A stretch of DNA of 63,911 bases, counting the filler, from Blastocystis sp. subtype 4 (taxonomy: Eukaryota): NCBI RefSeq assembly GCF_000743755.1. It is 13 parts of 13 records of this genome, joined end to end, with 100 filler letters (N's around TTAATTAATTAA, not from the genome) between each part and the next. Parts side by side here need not be neighbours in the genome. Positions count along the whole stretch, not along the records: positions 19,431 to 24,161 come from NW_014569053.1; 12 more parts are not named here. One strand, given 5' to 3'. Below the pieces are notes generated by a model. That model was not told the origin of the DNA, did no database searches, and saw only the letters and a program-made list of their open reading frames with translations. A program made the position numbers and the translations under genes. Positions 661 through 55,478 of this stretch are shown here, in pieces (position 1 is the first letter of the stretch; every line of letters starts with the position of its first letter).

Positions 661-919
661 AGTAGTAGTGTTTTGACACATCACGTAAGATAAAAAGCAG
701 ACAAACCGTTTCCAATATAGGCCTTCAACTCTGGGTAGCTAACAGGGAAATGCCAGGCAAATGGAAGCCTCCTTTTACCATTTCAAGCCAACTTGTAGGT
801 CAATTAAAGTAATATGTGTGTCATGGTCTGAAAGTCAGTTCAACCAAAGATTGAACCAACTGTGTAGCAGTATGGGCAAATAAGGGCAAGAATTTGTCGT
901 TAAAGGAAATACTATTCAA

Positions 920-1925
920 TAATCATTCAAGGTAAACCATTGAATGGATCATTCACATGGGACAATCCTTATCGATTTAACAATCCATACATTACAATCA
1001 TCAAAGTACTATTCACACCTACTTCAACATCAGATGTTCTATTCTCAAACATTGATCAAATCAATACTGTTTCTAATAGTAAAGGAGAATCTGTTATGTT
1101 TGATAAAGGATACTATACTCTGTCTCAAGTTATCGTAATGCTCAATCAAATGCAATACATTATTCTCAATGTTCAATGTAATTACAAGTTTTGGATGTAT
1201 CCAGATGAATTCCAGTAGTTCAATCGATTTCTCTCAAGCATCTTATATCATCGATATTCTGGGTCTAAAAGAAAAGGTGTATGAAGAAGGTTCCCATACA
1301 GGAACTAATATCATTGATATCACTAGAAACAGAAAAGTGATTCAAGTATAGTCTTCACTTGTATGAACATGTGATTTGAAGATTGCCAACCAGAACAACA
1401 ATTGATTATTACAATGATCATTGATGACCTCAATCCAGATACTTGAATTCGATTGAAGAAGTGAATATTCCTATGATCAATCGATTTGATCGTATCTACT
1501 TTTCATTCAAGGATTTGGATGGTAATCTTATGCAATTGAATGGTGATTTTGAACTTCAATTGACTATTGATGATGGTATTCAAGACACACAAAGTGAAGA
1601 TGATTCATGTTCACAACTCTCTTTATCTCAAGGATGTAACGAATACAAGACAGAAGTGAAATTGGATAATCCACTTTCATTCAAGAAGTGTTCCATTTCT
1701 TCAATATCGATATACACTGATTTCCAGTTGTAGAATGTGAATGAAGAACAGATTGTTGATAATAGAACAGAACATTGAATAATTACAATTCCTCAGGGTT
1801 GATATGAGATTGAAGAATTGATATCAATGTTAAACTGTAGTGATGTGATGTTTGAATTGATATACAATGGTGAGAATGCCTTCAGAATATCTGCAAATTA
1901 CTTCTATACACTCGATTTCTCCTAT
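920..1925 (+). pseudogene. Penton/minor capsid protein-like relic with two tandem jelly-roll-like units
   Basis: KGYYTLSQVIVMLN, DITRNRKVIQV and FKDLDGNLMQLNGDFELQLTI align by eye to 20368..21051; second unit IPQG*YEIEELISMLN; stops and frameshifts. Confidence 0.65.
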
Positions 1926-1974
1926 CTAATCTGATTTCTCAAAACTAACTATCAAAGATGGCACAACCATCTTC

Positions 1975-2285
1975 ATCATAATCATCACCTTCATCTCTTC
2001 TAGTTCAATCATTCTCTTCAGAGATGGTATCAAAACAAGTCGATTGTTATCTTCATGATAGAAGATGTGTCTGGTTCGTACAGCTTTCATAAATGGTCCA
2101 TCTCCTACATCTATCTCTTGATTTGTCAATGAATTCAATACTCTTTTTCTTCAATTCTTCTTCTTTCTTCCATGAATCCGTTTTGAGATCCTATTTATTC
2201 CTTTTGAATACAATCTATAGTATGTCACTGACTTATACTCCATACCATGTCTCTTGGAATTGGGACTTGATATGTAGAATTTCAT
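1975..2285 (-). pseudogene. Relic homolog of the viral NPxT-repeat protein at 36541..36939
   Basis: NSLTNQEIDVGDGPFMKAVRT...EDNNRLVLIPSLK vs NPLTNREINVGDNSFMVAIRT...EDNNKLVLIPSLK. Confidence 0.8.
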
Positions 2286-2328
2286 ATTCCTTTATTCATA
2301 CAAAATGAAATCAAATATTGAAATGAGT

Positions 2329-2661
2329 TTAAAACTGATATACATCAAACAGGGATGTTCATTCATTCTTATCAATCATTCTCATCTGTTTCATATTCAA
2401 ATGCTCAAACTTACCAAACTTGTTATTGAACACATTTCCTGTTAAGATCAAATCTATTCTATCATTCTTCAAGTTCATCAATTTCACATTTATCAATTCA
2501 TTCTTGTTCTTATCATATAGTTTGGTTGAATCTGTGATGAAAGAAGTGATTGTATCATCCTTAATCTAATCATTCTTACAATCATTTGTATCACTCAAGA
2601 ATTGAATAACAATCTGATCATGTTTATTACTAGATACAAACTTGATGTAATTCTTCATTCT
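2329..2661 (-). pseudogene. Relic homolog of the viral SSB-like protein at 35994..36485
   Basis: KNYIKFV...QFLSD...TKLYDKNKNELINVKLMNLK...DLILTGNVFNNKFG...FDVYQF with one internal stop. Confidence 0.8.
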
Positions 2662-2999
2662 GTAAACACTATAAACACTACTTAGATGCCCTAGAGGGCA
2701 CTTTACGTCCACGCCATTCAGGCCTCGAACTAGTTCCCGAGTAATACTAATCTCCAGCGATTGTTTGACATTCATGAACCCAACCACTAGCTATCACAGA
2801 GATTAGGGTGATACCATTCAATGAAGAATAGTATCATTGTCACCCTTAATAACAACCACCATCGGGTAACATTATCTCAAATAGACATTCTTCCCATACC
2901 GTACCACATAGTCTAATTTGAGATAGTCGATGAACACCATTTCAATCACAAGAGAACAGAGTTCTTACATGATAGCAAACTCAAGGAATCCAGAACAGA

Positions 3000-4858
3000 G
3001 CCTGATAAGATCATGAAGCCCCTCAGGAAAATAATGAACAACACTACTACACAAGATATCCTGAATCCCTGTTGTTTACTACCAACAAGCAACTGACGGT
3101 AATTTCACCGCACAAAAACTCCTCAAGTAAAACCAGATAATAACTAAAAAAACATAACCAAAAAACAAAAAGCACACTCCATGAGACCATGGAATGAAAA
3201 AGGTGAACTCAAGGAGAAAGGCAAAAGGGTCGGTAAACAAAACTTGCTGATAAAGGGAGGAAACTATAGGAGAAAAGCCCGAAGACAGAAAAACTCCTGT
3301 ATAAAAACTCCCAAAACAATCCATATAAACAAAACGACCCAAAATCCATGTTGAGGATCGAGAACCGACCCTATGATAACAGGAACCCAACACCGATACT
3401 GATACCAATACCAATATCAGTATCACCACCACTCGCCAAAGAGCCAAGAACCATTACCATTTACCTATACTCAAAATTCAAGAACCCAGAGTCAAAACCA
3501 AGAACCAATGAACCAAGACTCAAGGGCCAAGAACAATGAGCCCATGAGCAGAAACCAGAACCAAAGAGCGAGACCCATAGAACCAAGGTTCAAGATCCCA
3601 AGACCATAACCAACTAACAAAGGATCAAGAACTAAGTACTATGAGCGAATCCAATACACCGAATCAAGGCTCCAAGAAACTATGGTCCGAGGGCAAAGGA
3701 CGAATGACGTGAACCATTTGGCAATACCACATAATGAGCCAGCATGAAAATGAGTCAATATGACTGAGTAAGGCTCAAGGGCAACAAGGAACCATTTATG
3801 AGTAATACAACATGAAGCAATGGTTAGGAGTCGGAGATCCAGAACGAAGACATAAGAATGAAGAATCAAGGACGAGCACGATGAATGAAGGTCCAGGTAC
3901 TAGAATACTCAGGTTGGTCAATAACAACTTCGAGAGTCAAAATCAGGAGCCAAAGAAGGAAGATAAATGAATAACAGCTGAAAGCCAAGAATCAAGGATC
4001 AGGAGCCAGGAATCAAGTTTCAAGGACCAAGAGTGAAACCAAATACCAAGAAACCTACCTAGACTCAAATCTCAACCCAAATAACCAAGACTCAAGGACC
4101 AAGAATCAGGATGAAGAACCAAGATCAATGAGTCAAAAACGAAAACCGAAATAACCAAGACTCAAAGACTTAGTTTCCAGATCCAAAAACAAAACCACCA
4201 ACAAAGGCTCAAGGGCCGAGCAAAGGCTCAAGGGCCGAGTTTGAAGAGCCAAAACGCAAACCAAGAAGCAGGACTGAAGAAGCAAAGAACAATAGCCGCA
4301 ACCAGCACTATGGTCCAAGGGTCAAGGACGAATGACGAGAACCATTGGGACAATATGATAGCGAGGTTGAAAAGGCAAAGAGTGATTAAAGAAGTAAGGG
4401 TGGAGGGAAGCAAAAGAGCCATTGATCGATAATACAGGAGGCAGAATGGAGACCCAAAGGACAAAAGCGAAGAGCCGAATCTGAATACAAAAATGAAGAA
4501 GTATGATGAATAATAACTTAAAGAGGCAAAATGAAGGACAAGAGAATGAAGATAAAGAGTTATGGTTGAATGCAAAAACGAAGAAGTATTAGGAACAACA
4601 AGTTAAGCCCAGGATAAAGGATGAAGGATGAAGAGTAAAGAAGAAGAACCAAGAAGTATGAGCCAAACAAGAGTACACCAAGACTCAAAGATCCAGATTC
4701 GAGATCAAAAACAAAGACCAAATAACGAAGAGTCAAGAATCAGGGACCAAGAGTGAAAAACCAAAACCAAGAGTCAAGGACCAAGAAGTATTAGTCAAAA
4801 ACCATAGACCAAGAACAAGGACTCAAAGAGCTGGTTTCAAGACTAAAACCAAGAGTAC
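3000..4858. repeat. Degenerate strand-biased short-repeat tract (ACCAAGA / CAAGGACCAAGA / GACTCAA units)
   Basis: Many imperfect copies; the ORFs here are low-complexity artefacts. Confidence 0.65.
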
Positions 4859-6049: not shown

Positions 6050-8720
6050 CAGACCTCCAAGTATTGCGGCAATCGGCAAGGCCAAGAATTGGCACCGACA
6101 CTGTGTCATTAGAATTGCCGATTACCGCAATTACCTAATGCTTCTTTTATCTGTAATTGATTGTTTGCAAACAACTTTCTTTAACTCAATTGTATTTAGG
6201 AATCAATGTCGTTCCTTTTTCTTTAAGATAATCATATTCACTCAAGTAGTGTCTCAGGAGAGCCAGTCTTCCACTTTTCTCACAACAAGTGGAATTCTGC
6301 TTAACTCGCAGTAAGCATCGAAGTGTATCTGTAGAAAGGCAGCTTCTTCTCGGTTGTAATATCAGACTTTGAACAGAAAAGGATCTCTCCACTGCTGCTG
6401 AAGATGCAACTTGACAAACCTGATCCCGATAGATAGTTGCTAACACTTGATATTTCCAGGAATTGAAGATAAAGTACTGATTAACAGAGATACCAATACG
6501 CGAGTCAGTATCTCCCAGATAAGTGAGAATGTCCTTATCTGCTATATTACAGAGACGATTGATCTCATTTATGGAGACGAGCGGATTCTTCGCAGTTAAT
6601 AACTTCCGAATGTCTTTCTTCACTAAATAGATGAACTTTTGCGTTTCAGGATCCAATGTTGTCTTCATATCTACCTTCAAATTGAGATGATCATAGAATA
6701 GACTATATAGATGCTTTGAAGTCCTTTTGAATAGCCCCTTGTCATCAATAAACAATTGACCATTATCTTTCTGATTCAGAAAGAATAATTCATCTCCTTC
6801 TTGGGCATGACTCATGTAATGGTCTCGAATACTTTTCAACAGAGGAATTACATTCATCTGAAGAGTAGTGTCAGCTTGACAAATAGCGATTCCTTGAACC
6901 AATGGTGAAGATAACATACTGCTCTCAGATGCTCCCTTCTATCAATCTTTCTCATTGAAGCCATGAATTCATTCTTCTTTTGTTTGCTATAGGCAGTAGG
7001 GTTCTGTTCCATATCCTTATATAAAGCTTTCATAGACTCATACAGCAAATAGAATCTTCTCATAACTAAAACTGCACTATACCACCGCGTTTTACAGTAT
7101 GATAGGAGTTTATATAGCTTTTTCCTCTTTCTCTTAGGAATCCAAAGATCAGGAGCAACAATACAACTATCGTTAGCATCACTATTATCGCTGGAGTCAT
7201 CTGAGTCATCCACTGAGTCATTAGGGAGAGTATTGTCTTTGATATCATTCTCCATACTCATATCATCAATCCATATGTGTTCCATTTCATTCCTTTCATA
7301 GAGTGATTCATGGACATACTGAACGATTGGTCCTTCATCAAGATTACCTATAGATAACCAAACGCTCCAAGAAATACTCCTATTCTCATAACACCAGGAC
7401 CACTCAAGGATCTGAGGAATTGGCTCAAACGGTGAGATTTGTTGGAATTCCATCATTCTGTTGTAGAGAATCTTGGAGGATAATACACAGGCATTTGCTT
7501 CACGCACCTAATAATGAGAGAGATAATCATCTATAACATTATTCCAAAGAGTCTTTAGAGGCTCCTGTTTCAACATCTTCTTGAGTATTCCATTCAGATA
7601 ATGTGATACACAAGGAATACGAGGTATACTCCTTCCACAATGAGCTTTCACAAAATCCTCGGTTCCTCGCATGACACTACAGTTGTCTGTTGCATAAGCC
7701 ACAACATCAAGACCCAGTTAACGCATTCACTTGATCAGCTATTGCCTTCCCAACATCACTAGATGCTCTTGTTTCCACTAATACTGTCCCAAAAGAAAAC
7801 GTTCACCCCTCTCATATCAATATCACTATCCGCTGCTAACACGAAATTGTAATAAGAACAATGATTCTTCCTCATCTCATCAGCAACTAGAGTCACTTTA
7901 AAGCCCATTAGTTGATTCACAACAAAATCCATCACCTTCTTTGCAGTATGAGGAAGCAGCTTATTACAGAATGTCGTTGAACTGACTCTACGAAATCCAG
8001 GCGCACAAGATTCCATGAATATTCTCCATTAAGGAGGATCCAACAGAGAGAGAGACAAATTGGCATTTGAAGCAAATAACACCAAATCATCATTGCTTGT
8101 ATCAGTTCGTTTCACGTAATGATCCATTGTTCCTTCCTCCTTATGACTCTAGAGGTTGTGAACGAATTACAATTATACTCGTTTCAAGATTTCATGCTAC
8201 AAACTACATCAATACTATTATTCATCATCTTAGTGTTGTAGGTGCTCACAATCTACTATTAACTCCATTCTAAAATGTTACATCCTTTATTGTAACTGAG
8301 TAAACGGAATAATCATTCGAGAAATGACTTTTGATATGGTTGATGCATTTCTTCTTATCCGCAGAAATCAGTTTCTTACATATGAAACCTGGAATTGAAC
8401 ATAGCATACAGTCATATACATGTTACTTTACATCTATTACTCTTTGAGTATAGAATCATCCTCTTATCCCCAGAGAATACCTCAATATACTTATCATCAG
8501 GCCTCTTCATAGGATCAGTAGCCATAGCTTTGCCATAATTGACTAAGATGGTCTGATACAATCTCCGATGAAGGCAGTTCCATTCCCCTTTTCTCTAAAC
8601 AAGTCTTTAGTAGTTCCGTTTGTCTGTTAACAAATAAACGATCTATATCATATTAATGGCGGCATTGCGGCAATCAGCACAGCATGTCAATACCCCATTG
8701 CCGCAATATTTGGAGGTCTG
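6050..8720 (-). mobile_element. hAT-superfamily DNA transposon
   Basis: 24-bp TIRs CAGACCTCCAAGTATTGCGGCAAT (6050-6073) and 8697-8720, 23/24 match; transposase inside. Confidence 0.9.
6186..8430 (-). pseudogene. hAT transposase, disrupted
   Basis: BED-like CMLC...H...H near 8330-8420; LVADE; ATDN; CVSHYLN; TRWYS; dimerisation motif ASSAAVERSFS; 30-nt intron 7508-7537; frameshift near 6900 and stops. Confidence 0.85.
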
Positions 8721-9784: not shown

Positions 9785-10107
9785 ATGTAAGGTAAATCAA
9801 CGGCAAAATTATTGTCCCATATTGCTGGTAGGGTTGCTGACCATTGTAAGCCATTGTTAACGTGTGTCAATTATTTTGTGCTTCATTGTTGCCCATGATT
9901 TGACTTGAAATGGGTTGGATATGTTTCCAAATTATTATCAAAATGTCTGTCTTTTCGAGCTTGTTTATGGGCCTTTTTGTCTGCATTTTACTGGCGATTT
10001 TGTCTGGTAGGGTTAAGCGTGTATAGCTACCCAGGGTTGGAGGCCCATGTTTGCGACAGTTTGTCTGGATGAAAAAAATACGTAACATGCGTCAAAACAC
10101 TACTACT
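9785..10107 (-). mobile_element. Polinton/Maverick-like terminal inverted repeat (right end as written)
   Basis: Minus strand reads AGTAGTAGTGTTTTGACGCATGTTACGTA...CAGACAAA...GGGCCTCCAACCCTGGGTAGCTATAC. Confidence 0.8.
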
Positions 10108-10450
10108 TACTGGTTATTCGTATAAGTGATTTGGATTCGAGTCACTTGGATATGTGTGATTGTTATGGTGAATCAGTATCAATCGCTTCTGACATCTAAA
10201 TCAGCATCCGGTTAAGCGTGAATAGGAAAGTTTTTATCACTCAACTATCAAATTAGTACATACAATTGTCAGTATAAGGTGGCAACGCCTCCTCTCCCGA
10301 CCGAACCTGACAGCTATCAGGCATTTTGTAAGTCCTTTCTGTAGTTATTCTATTAGTGAATATGGTAGTGATGGTTTTTGTCATGACTTGATTATGTTCA
10401 ATGAAACATTGTGACTCCAAAGAATCAATAGGTAGTATCATCTTAAGTTC

Positions 10451-10749: not shown

Positions 10750-11533
10750 TTTGTTATCTCATTTGTTACCCCTCCAATGAGGAATTAGAAATTGAAAGGT
10801 GATTCAGGAATCACTATGCCCAACGAGAGACACCAAAGGATATGAACGCAATACTAGTAGTCATATGGAGCGATATGGGAGATTCCAATCTGGATGTCAT
10901 CTTCAAGTATCATTGTTACTTCCTCACCAAACATATAACCATCATATTCCATTGGCAATACGTACTCCAGGGAATAAACCGAACTATCATTCTAGTTATT
11001 ACTCCAAGTTCCTTACAACCAAACGAACCTTTACACCAAACTGTAGTAACGAAATAGGCAACTACAAATGTCCCAAACTACAGCAAATGCAAAGGAGTAC
11101 TAACAATACCTATTATCTAGTTGTATAAGAACCAAGAGATTGATACAAATGGAAAAACGATCGGATTGGTATCATTCACTCCCAAGTCAGAATATGTGAA
11201 TTCGAAATGTTGAGATTTGTAGAGGCTCTGTATATCAACGTTCATCTTTCACTTCGTTAGGTTTCATTGATTATGGATTGTTCAACACATTTAGATCATC
11301 TCACTTATTATCTTGATACTATTAAATTCTATGTTCATATCACAAACCAATACGATTCTAAGAGTATGGATGTCCAGAAACAGTTATTGGTAGATTTACA
11401 ATCATCTGGAATCAACAAGGAACTGATTGGTTCCAGTTGTTCATCAATGATCTGGAATCATGTTAGAGAGGATCTTGCATAGGAACTGCCACAACAAACA
11501 ACATCAATTCATGATTAACATACAATTTTCATT

Positions 11534-12720
11534 CTAGTTCACATTAGGAACACTCAGTCCAGGAAGACAAATGTTACGAAGAAGATTTGAAGTAGTCTCA
11601 CTGAAAGGGAAAGAATGACCACACTTTTCATGAAGAACAATACTAAGTTCTCTCACACAAGAAGCAGAATAGCTCTCAGAAGGAGTTCTCAAAGCCTTAT
11701 CAGCAGCCTTCTCATTCATCAAAGCATATTCAAAGGCAAGCTTCTCATATTCAGCAAGAGCAGCAGCAGAGTCAGACTTATCAGCACGAATAGTTCTCCA
11801 TTTAGCAAGATGAAGAGGAACTTGATCAAGAGATACAGTGGAAGCAGAGGAAGCCTTCTTCAAAGAACGGAAAGAAGGAGCAGGAAATTCTCCAAAGAAA
11901 TCAGAAAGAGGAAGATCTCTGAAGGACATTATTTCCAAACTCACTCACATTCTGATCAGAAGTCTCAGCAACCTCCTTCATAACAGCATCTACAAGTTCA
12001 CCAATCACATCCTTGGATTTCTCTTCCGCATACACCATGAAGGCTTCATTCCAAAGAGAGGAAATACAAGTTCCCAGGGTCCAATAATCTCATCATTCGG
12101 AGGGCAGTTGATCATCCAACCATAGGGTTTATCATCATTAGCTGTCATTATGTTAATATCCCAGTCCTTAGGGAGATTCTTGGACTCCGAATAACAAGTT
12201 TCCATGAACCAAACCCACTTTCCATATAGTTTCTTCTTATGAACAGTTTTCAAGGAATCAAGCAATTGTTCTTCAGTGACATAATCCTCACCAACAACAA
12301 TGATACTTTTTGTACCATGATCAATGAAACAGGTGATACAGGGTCATTAGGGCCAGCAGCCAGAACCTTAGGATTCTCCTTTCCAGTATTAGCCTTCACA
12401 GTTTCAGTATCTCCAGAGAGAATAGCAAGAAATACTCTAAGATTGATATCCTTATCCGTGTAATCAATATGATCAAACCACCATACTTAGCCCAATCGCT
12501 ATCTTTATTATCTGCAGGATTTGTGAAAACTATCCCCTTGAAGGGATTCACATCTTTGTACACATCACTGTAATAGGTCAGATAGGTGATATTCTCAGGC
12601 TTGATTCCAGCTTTGATCATATCATCATAGAGACGACAAGTAAGCTAGAAATGAAATACGATTAGCAAAGAATACACTTTTAACCTAATAGTTCGTCCAC
12701 TCTTCTGTGTTCAAGTATCA
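11534..12720 (-). pseudogene. Legumain-like (peptidase C13) pseudogene
   Basis: GIKPENI...NPFKG, FMETCYS; frameshifts; NVN-TAG where the paralog at 55192 has NVN-TGG(W)NEICM. Confidence 0.75.
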
Positions 12721-19430: not shown

Positions 19431-20014
19431 TTCAAATCTGAATCAATTCCAAGAAATGATATCAGTTATACAGATAGTAATGGAAATACAACAATAATCA
19501 ATACAAGTGGTGGAATGAGTGGATTGATGACTCAAGACAGATACATTCAATTCATGAATGAAAGTTTTGCTTCAAACAACATTCCTATTGAATGGAAGAA
19601 AGGAGCAACTGGATATGAGATTAATTCTGATGAAGTATTCACACTCACATGTAATACACTTGATTCATCTTTCATTGGTCCTTCTAATCCAGTAAGTGGA
19701 TCAATATCACATAAATGGTATCTTCCTTATAATGATGAAGTTGGATAATACAGGTGCATTATATAGTGATAATCCTGTAGATATCACAAATGGTCTATCA
19801 AATATCAAATTGTATTGTAATGTAGTAAAGAGTAAAACAAAGCCATTGTTATCGAATATNNNNNNNNNNNNNNTACTATTATAAGAATCGTATTGAGATT
19901 CCTTGTTCTGATCAATTGGATCGTCTTGAATATGAATTTCGAAATGAAAAGGATGAACCATTATCATTCCTTGGTAACATCTATCTGTTGTTAACATTCA
20001 TGATTAAGAATTAA
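19431..20014 (+). CDS. Penton/minor capsid-like protein A (5'-partial, one frameshift near 19745, N gap at 19860)
   Basis: PVDITNGLSNIKLYCNVV and IEIPCSDQLDRLEYEFRNEKDEPLSFLGNIYLLLTF. Confidence 0.65.
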
Positions 20015-20026
20015 TGGTATTAGTAA

Positions 20027-20371
20027 ATGAACATAACATTCTCTCTAACATCATCCTATGAATACGAATTCAGTAGTAACAATCTGGTGAATAATGAAAT
20101 GATGATTGAACATATATCATTATGTTGTGAATCAGATGAATTGATAGGATCATGTATTGTATTGGATACAATCAATAATATGCAAGAACGTAAACAATCT
20201 CCATTGATTGTTATTAATGATGTGTATCAATCAGACAAAGTGAATATAATGGTTCCAAAGACATCAAAATGGAGATTCTTTGTGACAGACAAAGAAGGGA
20301 ATAGAATCAAATTGAATAGACGAGTAACAATGAATTTGTGTTGTTCCGTTTTTGATTGTAGAGATAAATGA
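20027..20371 (+). CDS. Short penton-like protein B
   Basis: C-terminal VNIMVP...RFFVTDKEGNRIKL...VTMNL parallels penton C-terminal strands. Confidence 0.5.
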   Translation: MNITFSLTSSYEYEFSSNNLVNNEMMIEHISLCCESDELIGSCIVLDTINNMQERKQSPLIVINDVYQSDKVNIMVPKTSKWRFFVTDKEGNRIKLNRRVTMNLCCSVFDCRDK

Positions 20372-21051
20372 AGCCTGTAAGTATAATCAATCATAACACG
20401 ATTATTCCAAAGAACAATAGTCGATATCGAGAATCATTCAATACAGTAATTCTACCAAAGGATAACATATACAAGATTACTTCAATAACATGTAAGATTG
20501 ATACAACAAGTCTATGGAACATTCGTAAGACAAACATTGTGCGTATGGTGAATAACAAGGGACAGAATATGACATATCATATTGTAGGAGGATATTACAC
20601 AATTGATGAGTTATGTAACAGTGTAGCTAAAACAATTGATGTTAATGAAGATAATCTGGCTTATGTGACATCAAATTGTGAATGTGTGGATTTGAGTGAT
20701 GCACCAGATGTAGCAAAGATATTGAAGATGGAAGAAAGGTTGTATAACTATGATGGTAAAGTACATACAAGTGAACCATATGATATAACAAATGGACAAG
20801 GTGTAATTCGTATCTACAGTAGTATTATGAAACAAACATTTGGTATTAAGAGTTCATTAATTGATAATTTGATTCATGTATCAATTGGTCTGAACAATAT
20901 CATAACAATAGACAATTTGAATATTGATGTGATTGATCAATCCAATTTGGATAGTATTGAATGGTTGATAACGGATATGAATGATAATCCAATATCACTT
21001 AATTCCAATGTGTATGTATCGTTTACGATAAGTTGTTATCCAAAGAATTAA
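20368..21051 (+). CDS. Penton/minor capsid protein C (single jelly-roll)
   Basis: GGYYTIDEL, DITNG..VIRIYSSI, LDSIEWLITDMNDNPISL..VYVSFTI, the Polinton/virophage minor capsid pattern. Confidence 0.72.
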   Translation: MKPVSIINHNTIIPKNNSRYRESFNTVILPKDNIYKITSITCKIDTTSLWNIRKTNIVRMVNNKGQNMTYHIVGGYYTIDELCNSVAKTIDVNEDNLAYVTSNCECVDLSDAPDVAKILKMEERLYNYDGKVHTSEPYDITNGQGVIRIYSSIMKQTFGIKSSLIDNLIHVSIGLNNIITIDNLNIDVIDQSNLDSIEWLITDMNDNPISLNSNVYVSFTISCYPKN

Positions 21052-21098
21052 TCATTGTTATCCAAAGAATTAATCATCATTATTCTTTCTATTAGTAA

Positions 21099-21383
21099 AT
21101 GATTATCAAAGTATCAAATTGTGAATATGATAAGCTTGATAAACTCCAATTGAAGAGTAACTCATTCACTCTATACATTCAATGTTTCAAGAAGTTCAAT
21201 AGTAGTCGAGATATCTATGAATTCAAAACAAATACTTCAAAAGTGTATGTGAGTAGTAGTAATGTTGTGAAGATGATTCCTGATTATGAAAGTCTAAGTG
21301 AGACATCAAGTATAGAAGATATCATTCATGAGGCAATTGAAGATAATGTGAGTATTGTGAAACTTGTGTTTATAGGTTATTAA
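21099..21383 (+). CDS. Viral hypothetical protein
   Basis: Intact 94-aa ORF preceded by the shared TATTAGTAAATGA motif. Confidence 0.6.
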   Translation: MIIKVSNCEYDKLDKLQLKSNSFTLYIQCFKKFNSSRDIYEFKTNTSKVYVSSSNVVKMIPDYESLSETSSIEDIIHEAIEDNVSIVKLVFIGY

Positions 21384-21418
21384 CTAAATCTTTTGTTTTA
21401 CTTTGTGTTTAATAAGAA

Positions 21419-22756
21419 ATGGAATCTGGATATGTAACTGAAATAGACACAACATTAGTGTCAATCAAGAACAAATTGCGTAAAATGAATCATATTAACC
21501 CTTATACAAAGAAGAGATTAACAAGAAGAACAAGAAATAGTATGAATGAAGCTACAACAATCGAAAAGAGTGTGAAAGAACATATATCAAATGAGAATGA
21601 TGATTATAAGAATGAACAATATCATAAGATACTGAAAGATTTGAAGGAATATATCCAACCAATGCAAAGTATTGATGAACAACTACAAGATTTGAAACAA
21701 AACAAAGAAAGTCTGGGTATTATGAAGTTTGATTGGGATGTTGATTGTGAAGATACATTCATGAATCAATTCACATTGATAATTGCTCCTTCAAAATCAG
21801 GTAAATCGTATCTAATCAACCAACTTTGTTATGAAATTCCACATTCTTTTGATAAGATTTGTTTGTTCATGGGTAAAGTGAGCTATCAGAACAAATGTCC
21901 TCAAGTTTTGAAACATGTTGCTAATTTGGCAGGAATCAAAACACAATGGATAAACACAGATAAAGATATGAAACCAGAATTCAGTGATAATTATGGATTA
22001 TGTTATGAAGAATTGAATGATGATGGTTCAAGCAATTTCATATACAATGATACAACATATCCATCAATCTACATATTTGATGATTTGTATACAAAGACAC
22101 CAGATCATTGGGTTGTGAATTTCATGGATACAATGGCATGTATGTCTCGTCATCGCAAAACATCCTGTTTCATTGCATTTCAAGGATTCTCAAGACTTAG
22201 TAACAAGATTATTGACAATTCTACAAGAATCTTTCTATTCTATGATATTCTAGGTCGTGAAGATTTGTGGAAGAAGATGAAGATTCCTCCTCCAACAAAT
22301 CTAAATCAAGTATTGAAGGATATTGAACAAGGAACTCATACTCGTTGGTATTACTTGGATGATTCAAATTTGGAAGAATATCTGCCTTATGATATTGCAT
22401 CCAAACAACAAGCTGTTAACAAGATGAAGAGTAAACTACCAAAAGCGATAACGGATGAACGGAAACGCAAAGAAGTTGAAGCAAAACAAAAGGAACTACA
22501 AAAGTTGGAAGAAGAATTGGGTATTTCAAAGGAACATACCACTTCTGTTAATAAGCCAAGAACATACAATCTGATTGATATCAAGGATGCTAAAGAAGTG
22601 AAACCAAAAGATTACACAAAATCGATATCAACGAAAGAATTTGAGTTCATTAAGAAGGTTAAACATGAAGATGGAGTTGAGGATTGTTATAATCAACAAG
22701 CTGTTAAAGTCAAAGTGAAGAAAGGATTAGGATTAAGAAGCAAATACAACTTATAA
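21419..22756 (+). CDS. A32-like FtsK/HerA genome-packaging ATPase
   Basis: Walker A APSKSGKS; Walker B IYIFDD; SRH arginine motif; FIAFQ...L...IIDN. Confidence 0.88.
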   Translation: MESGYVTEIDTTLVSIKNKLRKMNHINPYTKKRLTRRTRNSMNEATTIEKSVKEHISNENDDYKNEQYHKILKDLKEYIQPMQSIDEQLQDLKQNKESLGIMKFDWDVDCEDTFMNQFTLIIAPSKSGKSYLINQLCYEIPHSFDKICLFMGKVSYQNKCPQVLKHVANLAGIKTQWINTDKDMKPEFSDNYGLCYEELNDDGSSNFIYNDTTYPSIYIFDDLYTKTPDHWVVNFMDTMACMSRHRKTSCFIAFQGFSRLSNKIIDNSTRIFLFYDILGREDLWKKMKIPPPTNLNQVLKDIEQGTHTRWYYLDDSNLEEYLPYDIASKQQAVNKMKSKLPKAITDERKRKEVEAKQKELQKLEEELGISKEHTTSVNKPRTYNLIDIKDAKEVKPKDYTKSISTKEFEFIKKVKHEDGVEDCYNQQAVKVKVKKGLGLRSKYNL

Positions 22757-23158
22757 GTTGTATTGAACTAATGGATCAATAGCATCATGTGTAAACAAAT
22801 GTAGTAATGCTAGATAACCACAATTGTTTGCAAAGATGGATTGATATTTCACTTTGTTTGTACGGAATATTCGATTTGTATCCGATAATGGAAACTTGTT
22901 CAATGTTCCAAATGAATCTTGATAATTCAATGTACCATCTCCTTCTCTAAAACAACTAACATAATGTCCATTGTTTGGATCATTCTCAAATGGTATGTAA
23001 ATGATACAATTTGATGGTTCTTTGTATTTGTTAGCCAGTTTCTTATATTGATCCAATTCTAGTACTTTGAAATCTGGAATTTGAAGTGTTTTAGCAAGTT
23101 TTGTTATTTGAGCAAATGTTAATGGATTTGTATCTTCATTTAGATATCCATAAGTCAT
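22751..23158 (-). CDS. Adenain-like (CE clan) capsid maturation cysteine protease
   Basis: GHYVS (His), YQDSFG (Asp), YQSIFANNCGY (Gln, Cys). Confidence 0.88.
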   Translation of the reverse strand: MTYGYLNEDTNPLTFAQITKLAKTLQIPDFKVLELDQYKKLANKYKEPSNCIIYIPFENDPNNGHYVSCFREGDGTLNYQDSFGTLNKFPLSDTNRIFRTNKVKYQSIFANNCGYLALLHLFTHDAIDPLVQYNL

Positions 23159-23166
23159 CAATTGTT

Positions 23167-24161
23167 TCAATACACCTTCTTTCGTCTTGTTATTACTGAT
23201 GCATGGATTTGATTTTGATTTTGTGGTAGAGCAGTCAGAATGCGTTTCTTTTTTTCGATAACTGCTTCTGTATCATTTTGGAGATTATCAATATCATAAC
23301 CAGATCCTTGTTGTTGTGTAGTACCATAACTAGCAATTTGATTAGCCATCTTATTAACACTTCCTTTAGCCATATCACCAACAACATCTGCTATTTCTTT
23401 CATTGTACTCGATCCAGTCTTATCTCCAACATATTGTACACCCTTGTTAATGTAATCTCCTGCAGTTTCAACAGCAGAATGTAATAGAATATCAGTAATA
23501 GGTTTCAACTTATCAGCATTATTACCATACCAAGATTTGATACTATTCCAAGCCTTCTTCATTGTATCACCAAACTTTCCAGATCCAACTCGAATAGCAC
23601 CACCATCACGAATAAGATTCTTTCTTTGACGTTCAATCATTTTCAAAGTCTTTAACATTTCAGGATACTTATCAGGTTCAACACCATCAATGAATACTGC
23701 AGCTGCTCCACCTAGTTTGATAGCACCACCTGAGTATTTCTTCCACCTTGGGCTTTCGAACTTTCCTTAATAGCAGATATGATTTGAGGAGCCATTTGAA
23801 TAAGTGTAGGTATAACTGTTGCAGCTAATGCACCAAGTGCTCCTCCTTTCTTCAAACCATAAGTTCATTCATCAATTGTTGTTCATTGAATGCTAGTGCT
23901 CCACCTTTGTTATTCATGCTTATAGCACCACCTTTGGAATAATTTCTGGTATTTCCAAATGAAAAGGCACCAGCTGTATTATTGTTCATACTAATTGCAC
24001 CACCTACGGTATTACCTGAAATACTAGAGGTATTTCTACCACCTTTGGATCTAGTAGACTTCTTGGTTTGATAATTACCTTCAAGTTTCTTATGCAGATT
24101 AAGTGTCTTTCTACGATCAACAATACTTCCGCTGTTTTGTTCACGAAAGTCGGGTTCACCA
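23167..24161 (-). CDS. Putative virion core precursor with repeated GG-A/R sites (5'-partial, frameshifts near 23860 and 23732)
   Basis: Manual translation gives 7 GGA and 2 GGR sites, amphipathic segments and a basic C-terminus TRRKKVY. Confidence 0.6.
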
Positions 24162-34383: not shown

Positions 34384-35600
34384 TCATATCAAGAAATATA
34401 TGGATGGATGAAAACTAACTGACAAGAATCCTGTTATTATCAGTAATGGATGTGATAGATATGCTATTGATGATTATGAAATATGAATAGAATTGATATG
34501 ATATGAGAGTGTAGATATAAATGGAAACATCAGATGTAAGTAATGTTATATGAATGATGATAATGATATTCCCGTGATTGTATTCAGTAATATTGAATAG
34601 GAATGAAAAGATGATAGTAGAATATAGTAGAATAGTGAGATATGAATGTAAGTGAATGTGGATTGAAATGAATGAAATGGGCTAATGTGGAATGGCGTAA
34701 TTGGGGATCCGAATTGTGGTAAGAATGAAATGAATGTCGTTGCGCTGTAATGTAATTGTATGAGTAACACAGAATTGATAGTGTTTGATTGTGATATTGG
34801 ATTTGATGAAAGGATAAGGATAATATGAGTGAATGATTGAAAGAATGTGATAATTGATATGTTTGTTGTAGTTATGATTGTTTGAAAGTAATGTGTTTGA
34901 TATGAGTTAGTATGTGTTGATTGGTAATTGATATGATATGAGAATGGAGATGATTCCAGTAGTCTGATGATAACAGATAATCGAATGTTTCTGGTATTGA
35001 ATAATCAGCCATTGATGAATTGAATTGATTCCCGTGAATCAGTTTTAGGTAACAGTGAATGGAAATACAGTTATATTCATATCGAATAAGAAAAATGAGT
35101 GATGATAAGAGAATGAAAGTAGATAATGTTGAATCAATATCAAAGAAGATGAATGAAGTAGAATGGAGAATGAAGTGGAAAGAAGTAGTAGTAATTTGAC
35201 GTAAGTTACGTATTTTTAAGAAGGCAGACAAAAGGGCAAGAAGCGGGCCTTCAACCCTGGGTAGCTATACAGGCAAAAAGGTAGGTAAAAAAGCCACAAA
35301 CGCAGACAAAAACGAGACAAAAAGGCAGACAAAATGGTCGCAAAAGGCAGGAAATCTAATTGAAAAATGAAATGGTAACGTAAAAGACTCTGAAAAACAC
35401 TCAATAAACGTACGAAAATTGGAAACATATCGAACCGATTTCGAGTCAAATGATGGGAGAATAAGAACGAAAATGTTGTCAGTAATCTTGTGGCAGTGGT
35501 TGGTAATCTTGTGGCAACGGTCATCAAAGTGAAAGAGTCCTTTCACCAACCAACAAGCTGCTATGCAGCTTTGATGAGCTTCCATAATCTTATCACAATC

Positions 35601-35954
35601 ATGTTGTTTGATTGTAATGAAAGATTTCTCACATTAATAAACAGTATGACATTTCCTAATGATATGATTCAACGATTCATTTCACAAATGATAGATCACA
35701 TCTTAACAACATATTCATCTCATATACCAGATTCATTTGTTGTTAATGATAAACTACTCTATACAATGATTCACAACTATGGACAACATGTTAGTTCATA
35801 TCCATTTGATGGTTATTATGTTCATGTTAGTAATCAACGATACAAACTACTCTTATCAGAATCATCATTCTGTGATTATGGTATACACATAATGAAAGAT
35901 TCTGAATCATCTGATACACCACTTGATTGTTCAAAATGGAAGTATCAACATTGA
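35601..35954 (+). CDS. Viral hypothetical protein
   Basis: First ORF after the TIR; start codon uncertain. Confidence 0.45.
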   Translation: MLFDCNERFLTLINSMTFPNDMIQRFISQMIDHILTTYSSHIPDSFVVNDKLLYTMIHNYGQHVSSYPFDGYYVHVSNQRYKLLLSESSFCDYGIHIMKDSESSDTPLDCSKWKYQH

Positions 35955-35993
35955 TTTCGGAATGATGATTTCCTTTTCTTTTCATATTACTAA

Positions 35994-36485
35994 ATGAGCA
36001 TTGTTTCACCCTCTTCTATTGATATTCAGAATGATCAGCTAGATGTTACTAGCAAGGGCATTTCTCATAACAACAAGACTATCTATCTCAAACTATCCAA
36101 TGTTGCAGTGTTGTTTGGAGGTGATAATAAGCAGTTTGAATCGAATCCTTCCAAAGTGAAGAAGTACATCAAGTTTGTACCAACTGTTGCTAATGATTAC
36201 AAACTACTCCAATTCTTAAGTGATTCAAATATGAGTAAGAATCATTGGATTAATGATGTCACAGTAACTGCTTATATCAATGAACATACAAAGTTCTATG
36301 ATAAGAACAACAAAGAAATGACAAATGTGAAGTTAATGGATCTTAAGGATGGTACTGTAGATTTGATATTGAGTGGAAGTGTGTTTAAGAACAAATTTGG
36401 TACATTTGAAAGATTGATTGTTCGACAAATGCGTATTATTGAAAAGACTGATAGAAGATCATTGTTTGATGTATGTCAGTTTTGA
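35994..36485 (+). CDS. Putative OB-fold single-stranded DNA-binding protein
   Basis: TKFYD...VDLIL...FG...VRQMRI resembles T7 gp2.5-like SSBs of large DNA viruses (by eye); homolog at 2329..2661. Confidence 0.5.
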   Translation: MSIVSPSSIDIQNDQLDVTSKGISHNNKTIYLKLSNVAVLFGGDNKQFESNPSKVKKYIKFVPTVANDYKLLQFLSDSNMSKNHWINDVTVTAYINEHTKFYDKNNKEMTNVKLMDLKDGTVDLILSGSVFKNKFGTFERLIVRQMRIIEKTDRRSLFDVCQF

Positions 36486-36540
36486 ACTTTGAACTTTGAA
36501 CTCAATTTTGAATTCTTATTTTCACTTTGTATTAATAAGA

Positions 36541-36939
36541 ATGAAATTATACGTATCAAACCCTATTTTCAACAAACGACCAATTGAATATAGGTCTGTG
36601 ACCTATTATAGGTTAATCTCGAAGGGATATAAGTATGAACTTGAAAGTGACACATGGACTAAAACAAATGTTAAAGAAAGAAAGAAAGTGATTAATCCAT
36701 TAACAAATCGTGAGATTAATGTTGGTGATAATTCATTCATGGTAGCTATACGTACAGGATACATTCTATATGATGAAGACAATAACAAACTCGTATTAAT
36801 ACCATCATTGAAAGAACTCATTGAGAAAGAAGAACGACATTATGTTGATCCATTCTGTTGTGAAGATTCAGATGATTCTGATTTTGAATATGATTGTGAT
36901 GAATATGATTATGATGAAGATGGATGTATAGATTTCTAA
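36541..36939 (+). CDS. Viral protein with NPxTxRxI repeats and acidic tail
   Basis: NPIFNKRPI...TYYRL and INPLTNREINVG resemble the viral 2-Cys-adaptor-type motif. Confidence 0.65.
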   Translation: MKLYVSNPIFNKRPIEYRSVTYYRLISKGYKYELESDTWTKTNVKERKKVINPLTNREINVGDNSFMVAIRTGYILYDEDNNKLVLIPSLKELIEKEERHYVDPFCCEDSDDSDFEYDCDEYDYDEDGCIDF

Positions 36940-37039
36940 CCTTAGAGGTTGGAGTAATTCACTTTGATTTAAAACTAAAGAATGAAATACATAATAAGTT
37001 CAAATTTCAAATTTGTTTTTTGTTTTGTATAATAAAGAA

Positions 37040-38506
37040 ATGAATACAACTCTGAATCCAGAAACTGGACGTAAAGTGATAATTGGTGGACCAACTTATA
37101 GAAGAATGGCTAAGAAGTATTATACTGATAGAAATGGTGAATTGTTGGATCAATACTAATAGAAATGGTCAATTGTTGGATCAAGTGAAACCTACTGCTA
37201 ATATGAGTGTACAAACTACGAAAAGCAGAAAAGGAAGAGTTGGTGTGAAACATCCTGAAACAGGTAAAACTATGTATGTTGGTTCGAAAAGATGGAATAT
37301 GGAATGAAGTGTATCATATGTATAATTGGGATGGTAAGAATAAGAAGTTCACAGATAGAAGACAAACTCCTTTATCACAATATGAAGGAAGTGTATGGTA
37401 AGAATAAGAAGTTCACAGATAAAAGAGAAACTCCTTTATCACAATATGAAGGAAGTGTATCATCACGTCGTGAATATCGTAAACACTTTGCAAACATATT
37501 CAATGATATGATAAGAAGAAAGGGATATGAAATGGTTAACTCTGATATGGGATATACAGTTGAGTATTTCAATCTTAATGGTAAGAATAATGTGACTTTT
37601 GCTGAACAAAGATGTGGTAGAAAGATGTTGAAGAAATATGAACATAAGCTTCATAAAGGTGTATTTGAAGTTCGTAAACGAGGTGAAGATGATAATGATT
37701 TCAATGAAGTGAATAAGTTGAATCTTCGAGAAAGAGTTGTTGGTGGATATGTTGTTGAAGAAGATGTGGATGTGTTTAAGAATAGAATGAAAATGTTCTT
37801 ACAAAAAGGATATGGAGGAAACAAACTTACAAAAAGGATATGGAGGAAACAAACAATTCTTGGTAAGTATCGAAACTACAGATTTGTTCATGAAAGAAGA
37901 AACAGATAATGAGATAGTGATGGAAATCGTTCAATAGTGTATTGTGCGAAAATGATTAAAGATGATCGTGTTGCATCAGAACGAATTCTGAAAGTGGGTA
38001 ATGAAGATGAATTCATCAAATGTTTCCTTAAGTTCTATCAAGGAGCAATTGAAGGAGTTGAAATGATGGGTTCTGGATGGCAATATGTTGGAAATCTTGG
38101 TGTACAAATGAATCTGTTGCCTTTAAAGGTATATGTTGGATCTGCTATTAAAACTCCTGCTATTCTTGGTGAATGTGTTGTTAATCCTTGTATCAATGAT
38201 AATCGTTGTTTACAACGATGTTTGATACTTGCTTATAATGGTTCATCGATTATCAAGAATTGTAATACTACAAGAGTATCTGGTTATAGTAAGTATTGGA
38301 ACAAACCAATCAAGAATCCTGTATTTGGACATACAATACTTGAAATTGAGAATGTTCTGAATCTTACTGATAATGAACCATTTGTTGAATGTGAAGAGAA
38401 GTTTGAAGAATTGGAGAATCTACTGAATGTTTATATCAACTGTTATGAAATGCGAATGTTTGATGGATTTGATATGAAGAGTATGGATGAGAAGAATCTT
38501 GAAAAC
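37040..38506 (+). CDS. Protein-primed family B DNA polymerase, N-terminal region (frameshifted by tandem duplications, 3'-partial)
   Basis: GSGWQY...GSAIKTP...VVNP.INDNRCLQRCLILA...FEELEN..NVYINCY matches the N-terminal domain of Polinton pPolB; catalytic motifs lie beyond the contig. Confidence 0.68.
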
Positions 38507-43364: not shown

Positions 43365-46300
43365 TGGAGTTGCTGGATATGCTTTTGGTTTGAAGTATCC
43401 TTCTTATCCTACTGAAGTACCTACTACTGAGTTACCTACCACTGAAGTACCTACTACTGAGGTGCCTACTACTGAGGTGCCTACTACACCAATTCCTACT
43501 ACCCCAGCTCCAACAACTCCAATTCCTACTACTCCTGTTCCAACAACCCCTGTTCCAACTACACTAATTCCTACTACTCCTGTTCCTACTACTCCAATTC
43601 CAACAACTCCAGCTCCAACTACACCAATTCCTACTACTCCTGTTCCTACTACTCCAATTCCAACTACTCCAGCTCCAACTACACCAATTCCTACTACTCC
43701 TGTTCCTACTACTCCAATTCCAACAACTCCAGTTCCAACAACCCCTGTTCCAACTACTCCAGCTCCAACTACACCAATTCCTACTACTCCTGTTCCTACT
43801 ACTCCAATTCCAACAACTCCAGCTCCAACAACACCTGTTCCAACTACTCCAGCTCCAACAACACCAATTCCTACTACTCCTGTTCCAACAACCCCTGTTC
43901 CAACTACTCCAACCCCTACTACTCCTGTTCCAACTACACCAATTCCTACCACACCTGTTCCAACTACTCCAATTCCTACTACTCCTGTTCCAACAACACC
44001 TGTTCCAACTACTCCAGCTCCAACTACTCCAATCCCTACCACACCTGTTCCAACTACTCCAATTCCAACTACTCCAGCTCCAACAACACCTGTTCCAACT
44101 ACTCCAGCTCCAACAACACCAATCCCTACCACACCTGTTCCAACTACTCCAATTCCAACCACCCCAGCTCCAACAACACCTGTTCCAACTACTCCAATTC
44201 CAACTACTCCAGCTCCAACTACTTCAACCCCTACTACACCAATCCCTACTACTCCTGTTCCAACTACACCAATCCCTACTACTCCTGTTCCTACCACTCA
44301 GATCCCGACAATGCCTCCTGGTTGTAAGTCTCTTTCATTCCCTATTAAGATTGAAAAGCTGACAGGGAATGGTTATTTTTGGGCAGAGAATATCTATCTC
44401 TTCGATACAACTGCTGATACCAACGATATTACCAAAGCAATGTTCACTGCCGACAGCTTCACCTATAATGATACATCTCTTATTGAGGCGGAGGTGAGAG
44501 AAGGTACAGTTCAAGGTACTGAGAATTGTCTCTACAGTCTTGTGTTAGTGGCGCAAGAAAACAGTGCATGGGCTGATGGTGGAAGCGTCACAATCTATGG
44601 AGCTAATGGCAACGTTATCTTCAAAGGAATAATGGCTGAGAATACCAAAGAATCATATCAGCTCTCTCTCTACTCACCTATCAATAAGGGAGAGGAATGG
44701 AAGTATTCTGCTACAGTGAATGATGGTTGGTCTCTCCCTGAGTATGATGATTCACAATGGGATTCTTCTCTCTTGCCTCATTCTGGTGAATCTGTACTTA
44801 CTGAGTATTATCGGAGATCATTTGTTGGTGTTCGTGGGATGGCTGCTATTGACATCGAGTTCCAGTATATGGCTGGTATTGTTGCTTACATTAATGGTGT
44901 CGAAGTCTATCGTGACAACATGCCTGAAGGTCCCATTGATAGCAGTACACCTGCTAATGGTGAGTATGCCTCTTTGGACTTTCATGGTATTATCAAGCCT
45001 GCCAATGTTATCGAGAAGACTGACTCAGTTCTGGCAGTGGAACTCCATTACATGAGTCCTGTCTCTCCCCAAGCATTCGATGCCTTCCTTTCCTATTTGG
45101 CTGGAATCTCTCCAGCTGTTAACTGTTTTGTGTATCCACACAGCATTTCAGTCAGTGGTTCTTCTAATGGCCAGGCAATCGTTGATTGGAATAAGTATAG
45201 TTCCTGGAACTCTAATTCCTTCCCTGATTCTGTTGACTTTACGTTCTCTACATTAGCTTGGATAAACGGCTTGCGTATCTATCATAACTATATGAGTGAT
45301 AATCCCTCTTCCTTCATATTCACTGTCACTGAAGGAGGTTCTCAGTCAGAGATTCTCAATGCTAATGAAATCAGTCGATATGAAACTCAGTACAGTGTAT
45401 GGTTCTATTCAGATACAATCACGAAGGCCCAATCATTCGGAGTTACAATCGAGTCGGAACACACTACTGTTATCCCTGAGCTTCAATTCTTGGTATGTAA
45501 CCATGTGAGTCTCTCCTACCCTCAATCATCGTATTCTGTCATGACACGACAACCTGTCCTAATCCAGCCTCAGCTCTCTCAAGTCACCGAATGTACTATG
45601 ACCCCTTCCCTACCTACTGGACTTACTCTTGGCTCTGATTGCACAATCTCTGGAATGTTGCCTTCAGCTTCTTTGGATTCTTCTGAGACTATCTACACTA
45701 TCACTGGAAAGATGGGCGAGTACACTGTTACTGATACAATCACTTTTTCTTTCATTCCTTGTACTGAAACTCTTCATGTAACTAAACTGTTTAAGAGCCT
45801 TGATGATGATGAAGAATTCCAGATCCTGAATGCTGCTACATCTGAAGTCTTATTACAAGGTAGATCAAAATCGAATGGAAACGATTATACATTGAACACC
45901 TATTTGTGTCTATCTGCTCCTATCAAGGTTATTTTAATGGGTACCACTTCTTGGGAAAAGGAGGCTTATTTGTATATCCACACTGTTCTTCCTGATGGAG
46001 AGGAACAATTGATATTCAAGGGATTGTATGACAACATGTACCAAATGAATCAGAGTGAGTTTATCCTTAATGATTATTTGATTACTGATGGAGCTACATG
46101 GAGTTATTTGATCAATGAAGTGCCATCAGATTGGTTGAGTGTTGACACTTCCTCATGGTCAACAGGGTCACGTGGATCCTTTACAGGACCCAGTTCAATT
46201 CAGTTATACAAACGACCTTTTTCTGTTCTTTCCAAAGCTGATACTTCTGGTATTATTCTCTCGATTCGTTATCAAGCTGGTTGTATTGTGTATCTGAACG

Positions 46301-55191: not shown

Positions 55192-55277
55192 GTGAGACTA
55201 CTTCAAATCTTCTTCGTAACATTTGTCTTCCTGGACTGAGTGTTCCTAATGTGAACTGGAATGAGATTTGTATGTAA
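55192..55277 (+). CDS. Legumain-like protease, C-terminus
   Basis: ETTSNLLRNICLPGLSVPNVNWNEICM*, near-identical to the 11534 pseudogene. Confidence 0.7.
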
Positions 55278-55478
55278 ATCATGAATTGGTTTATTGTTTG
55301 TTTTGGAGTTCTCTAGTTTTTGTGTTTTTCTAGTTATAGAACTGAGTAACTATCATGATTACAAACACTATTGTATTATCCATTTGTTCAATAAACCCTC
55401 TATTAGCACAATACGATCATGTTTCCTAAACCACGGGGATTTCTAATTATGTATTTCTGTCCATACAAAAGCAGGATT

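Follow-up and report, generated by a model that had tools for sequence, protein, structure and literature searches.

In Blastocystis subtype 4, an integrating Polinton-like virus probably makes its maturation protease as a Gag-Pro-like extension of a core-protein precursor, a conserved run of A's (A7-8) being the predicted site of a programmed -1 shift. Both genes lie at positions 19431-24161 of the window, i.e., the whole 63,911-nucleotide stretch of DNA analyzed here, which is made of 13 separate contigs joined by N-linkers. The contig spanning these positions represents the module for virion assembly of this Polinton-like (MELD) virus (Table 1). The virus itself is not new, since its type has already been published (Starrett et al., 2021, PMC8502044) and relatives exist in GenBank. 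What appears to be novel, as judged from sequence comparison, is the expression mode of the protease, which would be previously unreported: no mention of a core-protease frameshift was found in the excerpted text of that paper.

The module contig has 99.3% identity with contigs from gut metagenomes (aligned with locus L007, it shows 33 mismatches over 4681 bases), and these same near-identical contigs carry a terminal repeat together with a double jelly-roll (DJR) major capsid protein (MCP), an rve integrase and a protein-primed polymerase (pPolB). The candidate MCP, a 425-aa ORF of L007 lying outside the window contig and modeled at pLDDT 61, superposes on the faustovirus MCP with a Z of 15.7 (rmsd 4.4, 295 aligned); its best 14 structure matches are DJR capsid or scaffold proteins, with Foldseek E values down to 1e-10. 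Z reached 14.3 with mavirus and 14.2 with Sputnik, a spread that does not settle virophage membership, for which Roux 2023 uses virophage-specific MCP, ATPase and protease HMMs. The integrase of L007 matches Pfam rve at E 4.7e-11. The pPolB has no Pfam match; L029 and L036 preserve its exonuclease and polymerase motifs, and L007 contains its C-terminal part. Furthermore, a common terminus lies ahead of both left-arm and right-arm genes, and no locus compared shows both ends, nor the two flanks between which a 6-bp target-site duplication would be read. Pfam and PDB sequence searches left the ATPase, protease, penton and MCP unnamed (the penton ORFs found no match among PDB sequences), and IMG/VR scans with ATPase, protease and MCP queries gave no matches.

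Host genes in the window group with Blastocystis subtype 4 proteins, and host-virus junctions with differing flanks are present, in agreement with the integrated virus family proposed in an earlier note on this DNA. That the module contig stems instead from a free viral genome picked up when the culture was sequenced seems unlikely; it has no host junction and many relatives are stand-alone contigs of 19-24 kb, but host-terminus junctions occur in the window, in L007 and in L005, an additional flank is seen in run X10, and in X3 the depth is even along the element and comparable to that of host-flank contigs (11 vs 8, which gives no copy number). A free genome would in any case be compatible with the frameshift, as it concerns the state of the virus and not its identity. 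The earlier note had also linked the pieces at 661, 10107, 12728 and 35184 to the module; this linkage is an artefact, because the window strings together unlinked contigs. The first and third of these pieces are indeed relics, as it held, while the second is a near-identical terminus cut by the contig end; and the arm with terminal repeat and polymerase read at 35184-38506 does hold a terminus and a right arm, albeit of a more diverged subfamily and with the 5′ part of the polymerase broken.

Table 1. Features of the module contig and of related pieces elsewhere in the window.
Positions	Strand	Feature	Basis or remarks
661..2665	.	Internally deleted relic	Separate contig: terminus, 5′ part of large penton gene (~80% identity), then two right-arm genes on - strand
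9785..10111	-	Host junction and near-identical terminus of same virus family	Separate contig; 92% to L007, 99% to L006
12728..13234	+	Short degraded left-end relic	Same contig as 9785-10111
19431..20014	+	C-terminal part (residues 821-1019) of 1019-aa multi-penton-domain protein	Cut by contig start, frameshifted near 19740, N-gap 19860-19873
20027..20371	+	114-aa conserved beta-rich ORF, possible minimal jelly roll (weakly supported)	Conserved in 10 ORFs
20368..21051	+	227-aa predicted single jelly-roll penton (minor capsid protein)	ESM Atlas and homologues
21099..21383	+	94-aa conserved ORF	ORF conservation
21419..22756	+	A32/FtsK-type genome-packaging ATPase, 445 aa, intact	Walker motifs, fold match
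22743..22764	.	22-bp perfect palindrome	Stop codons of ATPase and protease overlap within it
22751..23158	-	Adenain/Ulp1-type cysteine protease domain (His-Asp-Gln-Cys)	Motifs, Atlas
23159..23248	-	Stop-free -1 frame linker	Overlaps last codons of core gene, continues into protease
23249..23255	-	Conserved A7 run (A7-8 in relatives), predicted frameshift/slippage site	Sole A/T run of at least 6 in contig
23167..24161	-	GG-A repeat core-protein precursor (338 aa in L007)	Contig end cuts off 5′ end; frameshifts near 23734 and 23860
35184..38506	+	Host junction, terminus, right arm of diverged subfamily, broken pPolB 5′ part	Separate contig; terminus 74% identical to L007

The packaging ATPase carries APSKSGKS at 21785, IYIFDD at 22067 and SRH at 22145, and its best PDB fold match is the STIV2 B204 packaging NTPase (E 1.6e-3, short of E 0.001; probability 0.98); a wide VIA search with the full ATPase model was uninformative, its results being filled by the N-terminal helices. 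The protease displays His64, Asp81, Gln106 and Cys113, its motifs are kept in 76, 74 and 64 of 79 near-full-length homologues, and it reaches Atlas values of 0.94-0.97 to Peptidase_C5 clusters, a related sequence being DAD57292.1, “protease [MELD virus sp.].” The 227-aa predicted penton has 66 homologues and an ESM Atlas value of 0.97 to viral clusters, one of them with Sputnik V18/19 PF21507 on 26% of its members. The fragment at the contig start is 97-100% identical (tblastn) to the 1019-aa ORF of L007, its product matches a penton profile (HHalign 99.4%), and a relative's cluster includes DAD57286.1, “putative penton capsid protein [MELD virus sp.].” The 114-aa ORF shows a weak similarity to the penton profile (HHalign 39.6% over 28 columns).

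The earlier reading of the contig as a Polinton-like morphogenesis module is supported by the MCP, integrase and pPolB linked in near-identical contigs, and its three ATPase motifs, its His-Asp-Gln/Cys protease, its GG-A repeat ORF and its overlapping genes (20368-20371 and 22751-22756) were all recovered. Of its three penton-like ORFs, the 227-aa predicted penton has support, another being the broken tail of the 1019-aa protein and the third, of 114 aa, only weakly similar. It rightly took the ATPase as intact but overlooked that the structural genes of this copy bear three frameshifts (near 19740, 23734 and 23860, as compared with all five near-identical relatives examined), which, if real, would leave the copy unable to build particles alone. 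It also missed the frameshift link between the core gene and the protease.

The protease is likely made only as a frameshift fusion to the core protein because its gene sits behind the conserved A run. At 22 of 22 junctions (the 21 loci with both genes, plus the window) its reading frame is -1 relative to that of the GG-A core gene upstream. From the A run to the protease motif this frame has no stops in 734 codons (17 distinct junctions), compared with 533 in 4866 codons (11%) upstream in the same frame and 68 in 746 in the +1 frame; it is closed 4-15 codons ahead of the run in 21/22 junctions. The spacers come in 10 distinct lengths, from 11 to 113 nt, all of them 2 mod 3. The heptamer is A_AAA_AAG in 17 junctions and A_AAA_AAA in one, the other four having the imperfect, non-canonical G_AAA_AAA.

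The run itself is retained across lineages down to ~43% ATPase identity. A5+ runs are rare in the coding DNA (118 vs 233 expected; in L007 alone, 4 vs 39.6), and seven of the nine A7+ runs in long ORFs of seven loci are the junction site. AAA-AAA is retained even in L020, L023 and L024, where AAA makes up only 18-25% of Lys codons. A codon-resampling null gives 2e-9 over six lineages, which share ancestry, and is weak when lineages are taken one by one (0.42 for L001, 0.27 for L020). No shared downstream RNA fold was seen in single-sequence folds (-5.6 to -19.8 kcal/mol), computed without a shuffle control and with pseudoknots left out. RNA contigs across the junction hold, at contig level, solely the genomic A8 allele; contigs from RNA libraries span portions of the module at a depth of 2-8 and, since they may be DNA, we do not claim expression.

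Could the protease be an ordinary separate gene whose translation starts at an internal Met, or at a near-cognate codon in loci without that Met, either on a dedicated transcript or after reinitiation? The open frame and the A run would then be incidental to a conserved promoter or lysine stretch. The window copy does have an ATG of its own at 23158, of 20 database proteases extended upstream 19 retain the Met that follows the motif, and the GenBank “MELD virus sp.” (TPA) protease is annotated as a stand-alone 141-aa gene. We regard this as rather improbable, for it leaves unexplained the ten frame-preserving spacer lengths and the stop-free 734 codons, and does not account for the retention of AAA-AAA where that codon is scarce nor for the loss of Met in nine loci, a usable start being absent from L001-L008 and the conserved Met substituted in L035. 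In addition, conservation extends to residues upstream of this Met, even in a homologue of 39% identity. Longer protease-bearing proteins are weak evidence either way: the two found are garbled gene calls, and no natural in-frame fusion was among them.

Short introns are numerous in Blastocystis, and contigs would drop minor forms, so that a small spliceosomal intron might be thought to join core and protease. This is very improbable: the AG after the A run falls in different codon phases among lineages, two RNA-library contigs cross the site unspliced and without a joint, and splicing has no need for an entirely stop-free linker. A crude count of intron motifs did not separate host from viral contigs. 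As for cellular ATPase and SUMO-protease genes resembling viral ones by chance, with no MCP or pPolB linked, which the earlier note had named as the opposite outcome, the missing Pfam matches of ATPase, protease and penton would fit, but the reading is refuted by the DJR MCP structure matches, an integrase and a pPolB are linked as well, and homologues are named as MELD virus proteins, leaving it practically no credence.

Under the frameshift reading, most ribosomes would end the core precursor at its own stop, yielding a basic tail terminating in VY, and a minority of products would change frame at the A run and read on into the protease. Within recoding, a ribosomal slip on A_AAA_AAG is slightly favored over the addition of one A by the RNA polymerase. 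Either event would give the same protein. The fusion would then enter particles in a constant, small proportion to the core protein. By analogy with retroviral Gag-Pro, the protease may cleave the maturing precursor at its GG-A-like repeats, of which there are 8-10, and the ATPase would load the linear genome into a DJR capsid with penton vertices.

In retroviral Gag-Pro(-Pol), a structural polyprotein is followed by a maturation protease in the -1 frame, made at sub-stoichiometric level. The arrangement proposed here is alike in the polyprotein, the frame and the predicted low protease level, although it belongs to a dsDNA jelly-roll virus with a cysteine protease, without a stimulatory structure seen and without homology. 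A further parallel is offered by the adintoviruses, for which the consulted portion of Buck et al. (2024, PMC11071296) describes Penton and Hexon-Adenain (“Hexain”) slippery fusions predicted with KnotInFrame: there too a proposed -1 frameshift joins adenain to an upstream structural protein, but the partner is the hexon and the hosts are animals, whereas here the partner is the core precursor and the evidence is comparative, over about six lineages. Membership in the adintoviruses as defined by Buck was rejected, the host genes being those of Blastocystis subtype 4 and not of an animal.

A vOTU domain in pPolB is a feature described for Polintons (10.1101/2024.03.18.585575). With Polintons (Polintoviricetes) the virus shares pPolB, RVE integrase, DJR MCP, a predicted penton, packaging ATPase, Ulp1-type protease and AG-starting termini, and differs in the additional 1019-aa multi-penton protein and in the GG-A core precursor with the protease in its -1 frame. 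It resembles the Blastocystis MELD virus of Starrett et al. (2021, PMC8502044) and the GenBank TPA “MELD virus sp.” (DAD57286, DAD57290, DAD57292, DAD57293) in host genus, in having pPolB and integrase and in its divergent virion proteins. Compared with the GenBank TPA entries, the ATPase is 60% (A0A8S5L5U9) and the MCP 70% identical, and the subtype-4 lineage forms a different clade. GenBank mislabels the MELD virus ATPase as an SRP receptor.

A family of integrating DJR DNA viruses of Blastocystis, a gut protist of humans and animals, probably makes its maturation protease in Gag-Pro style, by slippage on a bare A7-8 run kept across lineages while homopolymers were purged elsewhere, and the unshifted basic tail with its VY may resemble the adenovirus pVIc activator peptide. 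The annotation of Polinton-type viruses treats the protease as a free-standing gene. A conserved core-protease fusion, if true, would show how such a virus sets the dose of its protease and loads it into the particle, would make a DNA virus convergent with retroviruses, and would provide a compact and directly testable recoding signal in a eukaryote. Since Blastocystis is culturable and intact alleles occur in several DNA runs, it also lends itself to asking whether Polintons that have integrated still give rise to particles.

Since the window joins 13 separate contigs, mostly of about 4.7 kb, through N-linkers, adjacent contigs are unlinked. Of four host ORFs queried, two were found in the collection, and both group with Blastocystis subtype 4 proteins. 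The ATPase, protease, GG-A repeat protein and gene overlaps that the earlier note had described in one of these contigs were all confirmed, and a metagenome scan recovered 38 related loci. Identity to the ATPase of the contig is 100% in L001-L007, and over 4681 aligned bases L007 shows 33 mismatches to the contig. The virus is almost certainly of a known kind: GenBank 'MELD virus sp.' proteins belong to the clusters of the contig's relatives, and the accessible text of Starrett 2021 (PMC8502044, 10.1101/697771) describes MELD viruses from Blastocystis datasets that carry PolB, an integrase and divergent virion proteins. The word 'Blastocystis' is absent from the main text of PMC10120064.

Features of the window and of related metagenome loci
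Sequence	Position	Feature
Window	19431-24161	one complete contig, GC 0.316
Window	near 19740	frameshift, large penton
Window	near 23734 and 23860	frameshifts, core
Window	23249-23255	A run of core
Window	23933-24062	GG-A repeat block of core; copies 99% identical elsewhere differ here in repeat number and sequence
Window	22743-22764	palindrome at gene junction
Window	661, 10107, 12728, 35184	termini
Window	6186-7456	overlapping ORF pair; hAT transposase dimerisation domain in the downstream ORF (Pfam 9.9e-09)
Window	43365-44100	15-bp tandem array upstream of 1396-aa Ig-domain ORF
Window	3400-4858	degenerate purine-rich repeat tract, contig end
Window	11505-11601 and 55192-55288	97-nt inverted repeat, 96% alike, on separate contigs
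L007	1-1320	host flank, then terminus
L007		order after terminus: 1019-aa ORF, 114, 227, 95, ATPase, protease, 338-aa core, 868-aa ORF, 425-aa ORF, 369-aa ORF, integrase, two small ORFs, polymerase
L007	8890-11496	conserved 815-893-aa ORF upstream of core, same strand
L007	12942-12962	palindrome at gene junction
L029	11874-11894	palindrome at gene junction
L036	11076-12326	416-aa ORF adjoining ATPase
L036	11012-11032 and 16911-16938	palindromes at gene junctions

The 425-aa ORF of L007 is modelled as a double jelly roll (Z scores: faustovirus major capsid protein 15.7, mavirus 14.3, Sputnik 14.2), its BFVD matches are mostly capsid proteins, and the integrase matches Pfam rve (4.7e-11). The complete motif set of a protein-primed polymerase was found in L029 and L036. 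The top PDB match of the ATPase model is the STIV2 B204 packaging NTPase, at a modest score (E 1.6e-3); GenBank DAD57293.1, a MELD virus packaging ATPase, is wrongly labelled 'signal recognition particle receptor'. The protease matches Peptidase_C5 clusters (Atlas), and its motifs are kept among 79 homologues of at least 110 aa (His 76/79, Asp 74/79, Gln/Cys 64/79). For the 227-aa ORF the Atlas gives a lead to Sputnik V18/19, and a profile alignment, three of whose eight rows were originally found via the penton profile, shows its homology to the 1019-aa protein (99.4%). A relative of the 1019-aa protein carries a penton annotation, and the 114-aa ORF is only weakly similar to the penton group. 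A relative of the 815-893-aa ORF is labelled 'mediator complex subunit 30' in GenBank. The 416-aa ORF of L036, a genome that already carries a protein-primed polymerase, gave no match in Pfam and PDB searches; its motifs are reminiscent of transposon-virus-type family A polymerases. The order and orientation of gene blocks (penton group, ATPase, core-protease, MCP) vary among L007, L029, L036, L013 and L020, yet core and protease are neighbours in 21/21 protease-bearing loci. The palindromes, perfect or nearly so, could be transcript-end signals or scars of module recombination.

Compared with five relatives, the contig carries one penton and two core frameshifts. Long contigs of four DNA runs, aligned to L007, span both core sites without the gaps, and RNA-library contigs carry L007-type letters; the breaks are therefore specific to this copy or assembly errors. 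Core ORFs of L001 and L004 are likewise split around the GG-A repeat block. Depth is flat across the element (9-12 in three of the runs and 53-86 in the fourth) and in run X3 is close to that of host-flank contigs (8), which, though depth is no copy number, suggests few full copies. Repeated integration is supported by the differing host flanks that adjoin the termini in the window, L007, L005 and run X10.

A conserved core-protease recoding signal, which appears to be previously unreported, is probably real. Upstream of the protease, the two remaining frames were checked in all protease-bearing loci (21 of 38) and the window; L036 has core and A run but is truncated within the protease, and 16 further loci contain neither. 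The protease lies at -1 relative to the core tail in all 22 junctions. Each junction carries an A7-8 run, which sits 24-30 codons upstream of the core stop (ten loci measured), and between it and the conserved protease motif the -1 frame holds no stop in 734 codons (17 distinct junctions), against 533/4866 in the same frame upstream of the run and 68/746 in the +1 frame. The -1 frame is closed 4-15 codons upstream of the run in 21/22, the exception being the GC-rich L020 (87), and the spacer takes ten distinct lengths, all preserving frame. Synonymous-codon resampling of the core tail gave a joint probability of 2e-9 over six chosen lineages, with 0.42 and 0.27 for two of the six taken singly. 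A tree of 15 core sequences separates L023-type, L029-type, L013-type, L020, L007-type and L035 groups, whose ancestry is still common. No Met precedes the catalytic His in the protease frame of L001-L007, and in L008 the nearest is just two residues before it. Long ORFs, counted in seven loci, are depleted in homopolymers (A5+, 118 observed vs 233 expected; T5+, 32 vs 70), yet 7 of their 9 A7+ runs are the junction site. In L007 AAA makes up 53% of Lys codons but begins just 2 of 25 Lys-Lys pairs, both at the junction site.

Several observations count against recoding: Met is retained at the protease start in 19/20 (most lineages), the window copy has its own protease ATG, the heptamer is imperfect in four loci, and no stimulatory fold shared among the junctions was seen. 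RNA contigs show only the major form; a minor shifted form would be invisible in contigs. As to how a shift would arise, polymerase stutter is favoured by the variation in phase, the lack of structure and the depletion of both A and T runs. Ribosomal slipping is favoured by an in-phase A_AAA_AAG or A_AAA_AAA heptamer in 18/22 junctions. Ribosome sliding on AAA codons is documented in the accessible parts of PMC4363877 and PMC4552401. The closest precedent, from the accessible text of Buck 2024, is the slippery Penton and Hexon-Adenain fusions predicted in adintoviruses (PMC11071296). For these viruses, the mainly openly accessible literature, whose supplements may bear on the point, gave no report of a core-protease frameshift; accessible parts of PMC9952930, 10.1101/2024.03.18.585575, PMC4409740, 10.1101/2022.05.25.493380, 10.1101/2024.03.23.586382 and PMC10675990 were also covered.

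The core tail bears conserved basic residues and VY, and most copies have 8-10 GG-A-like sites per core protein (range 4-10 among 11). This tail recalls the adenovirus peptide pVIc, and the cleavage rule for the sites is drawn by analogy from the adenovirus and ASFV proteases. A minority -1 shift would produce a core-protease fusion that may be packaged alongside core, whose protease would then cleave core at the GG-A-like sites.
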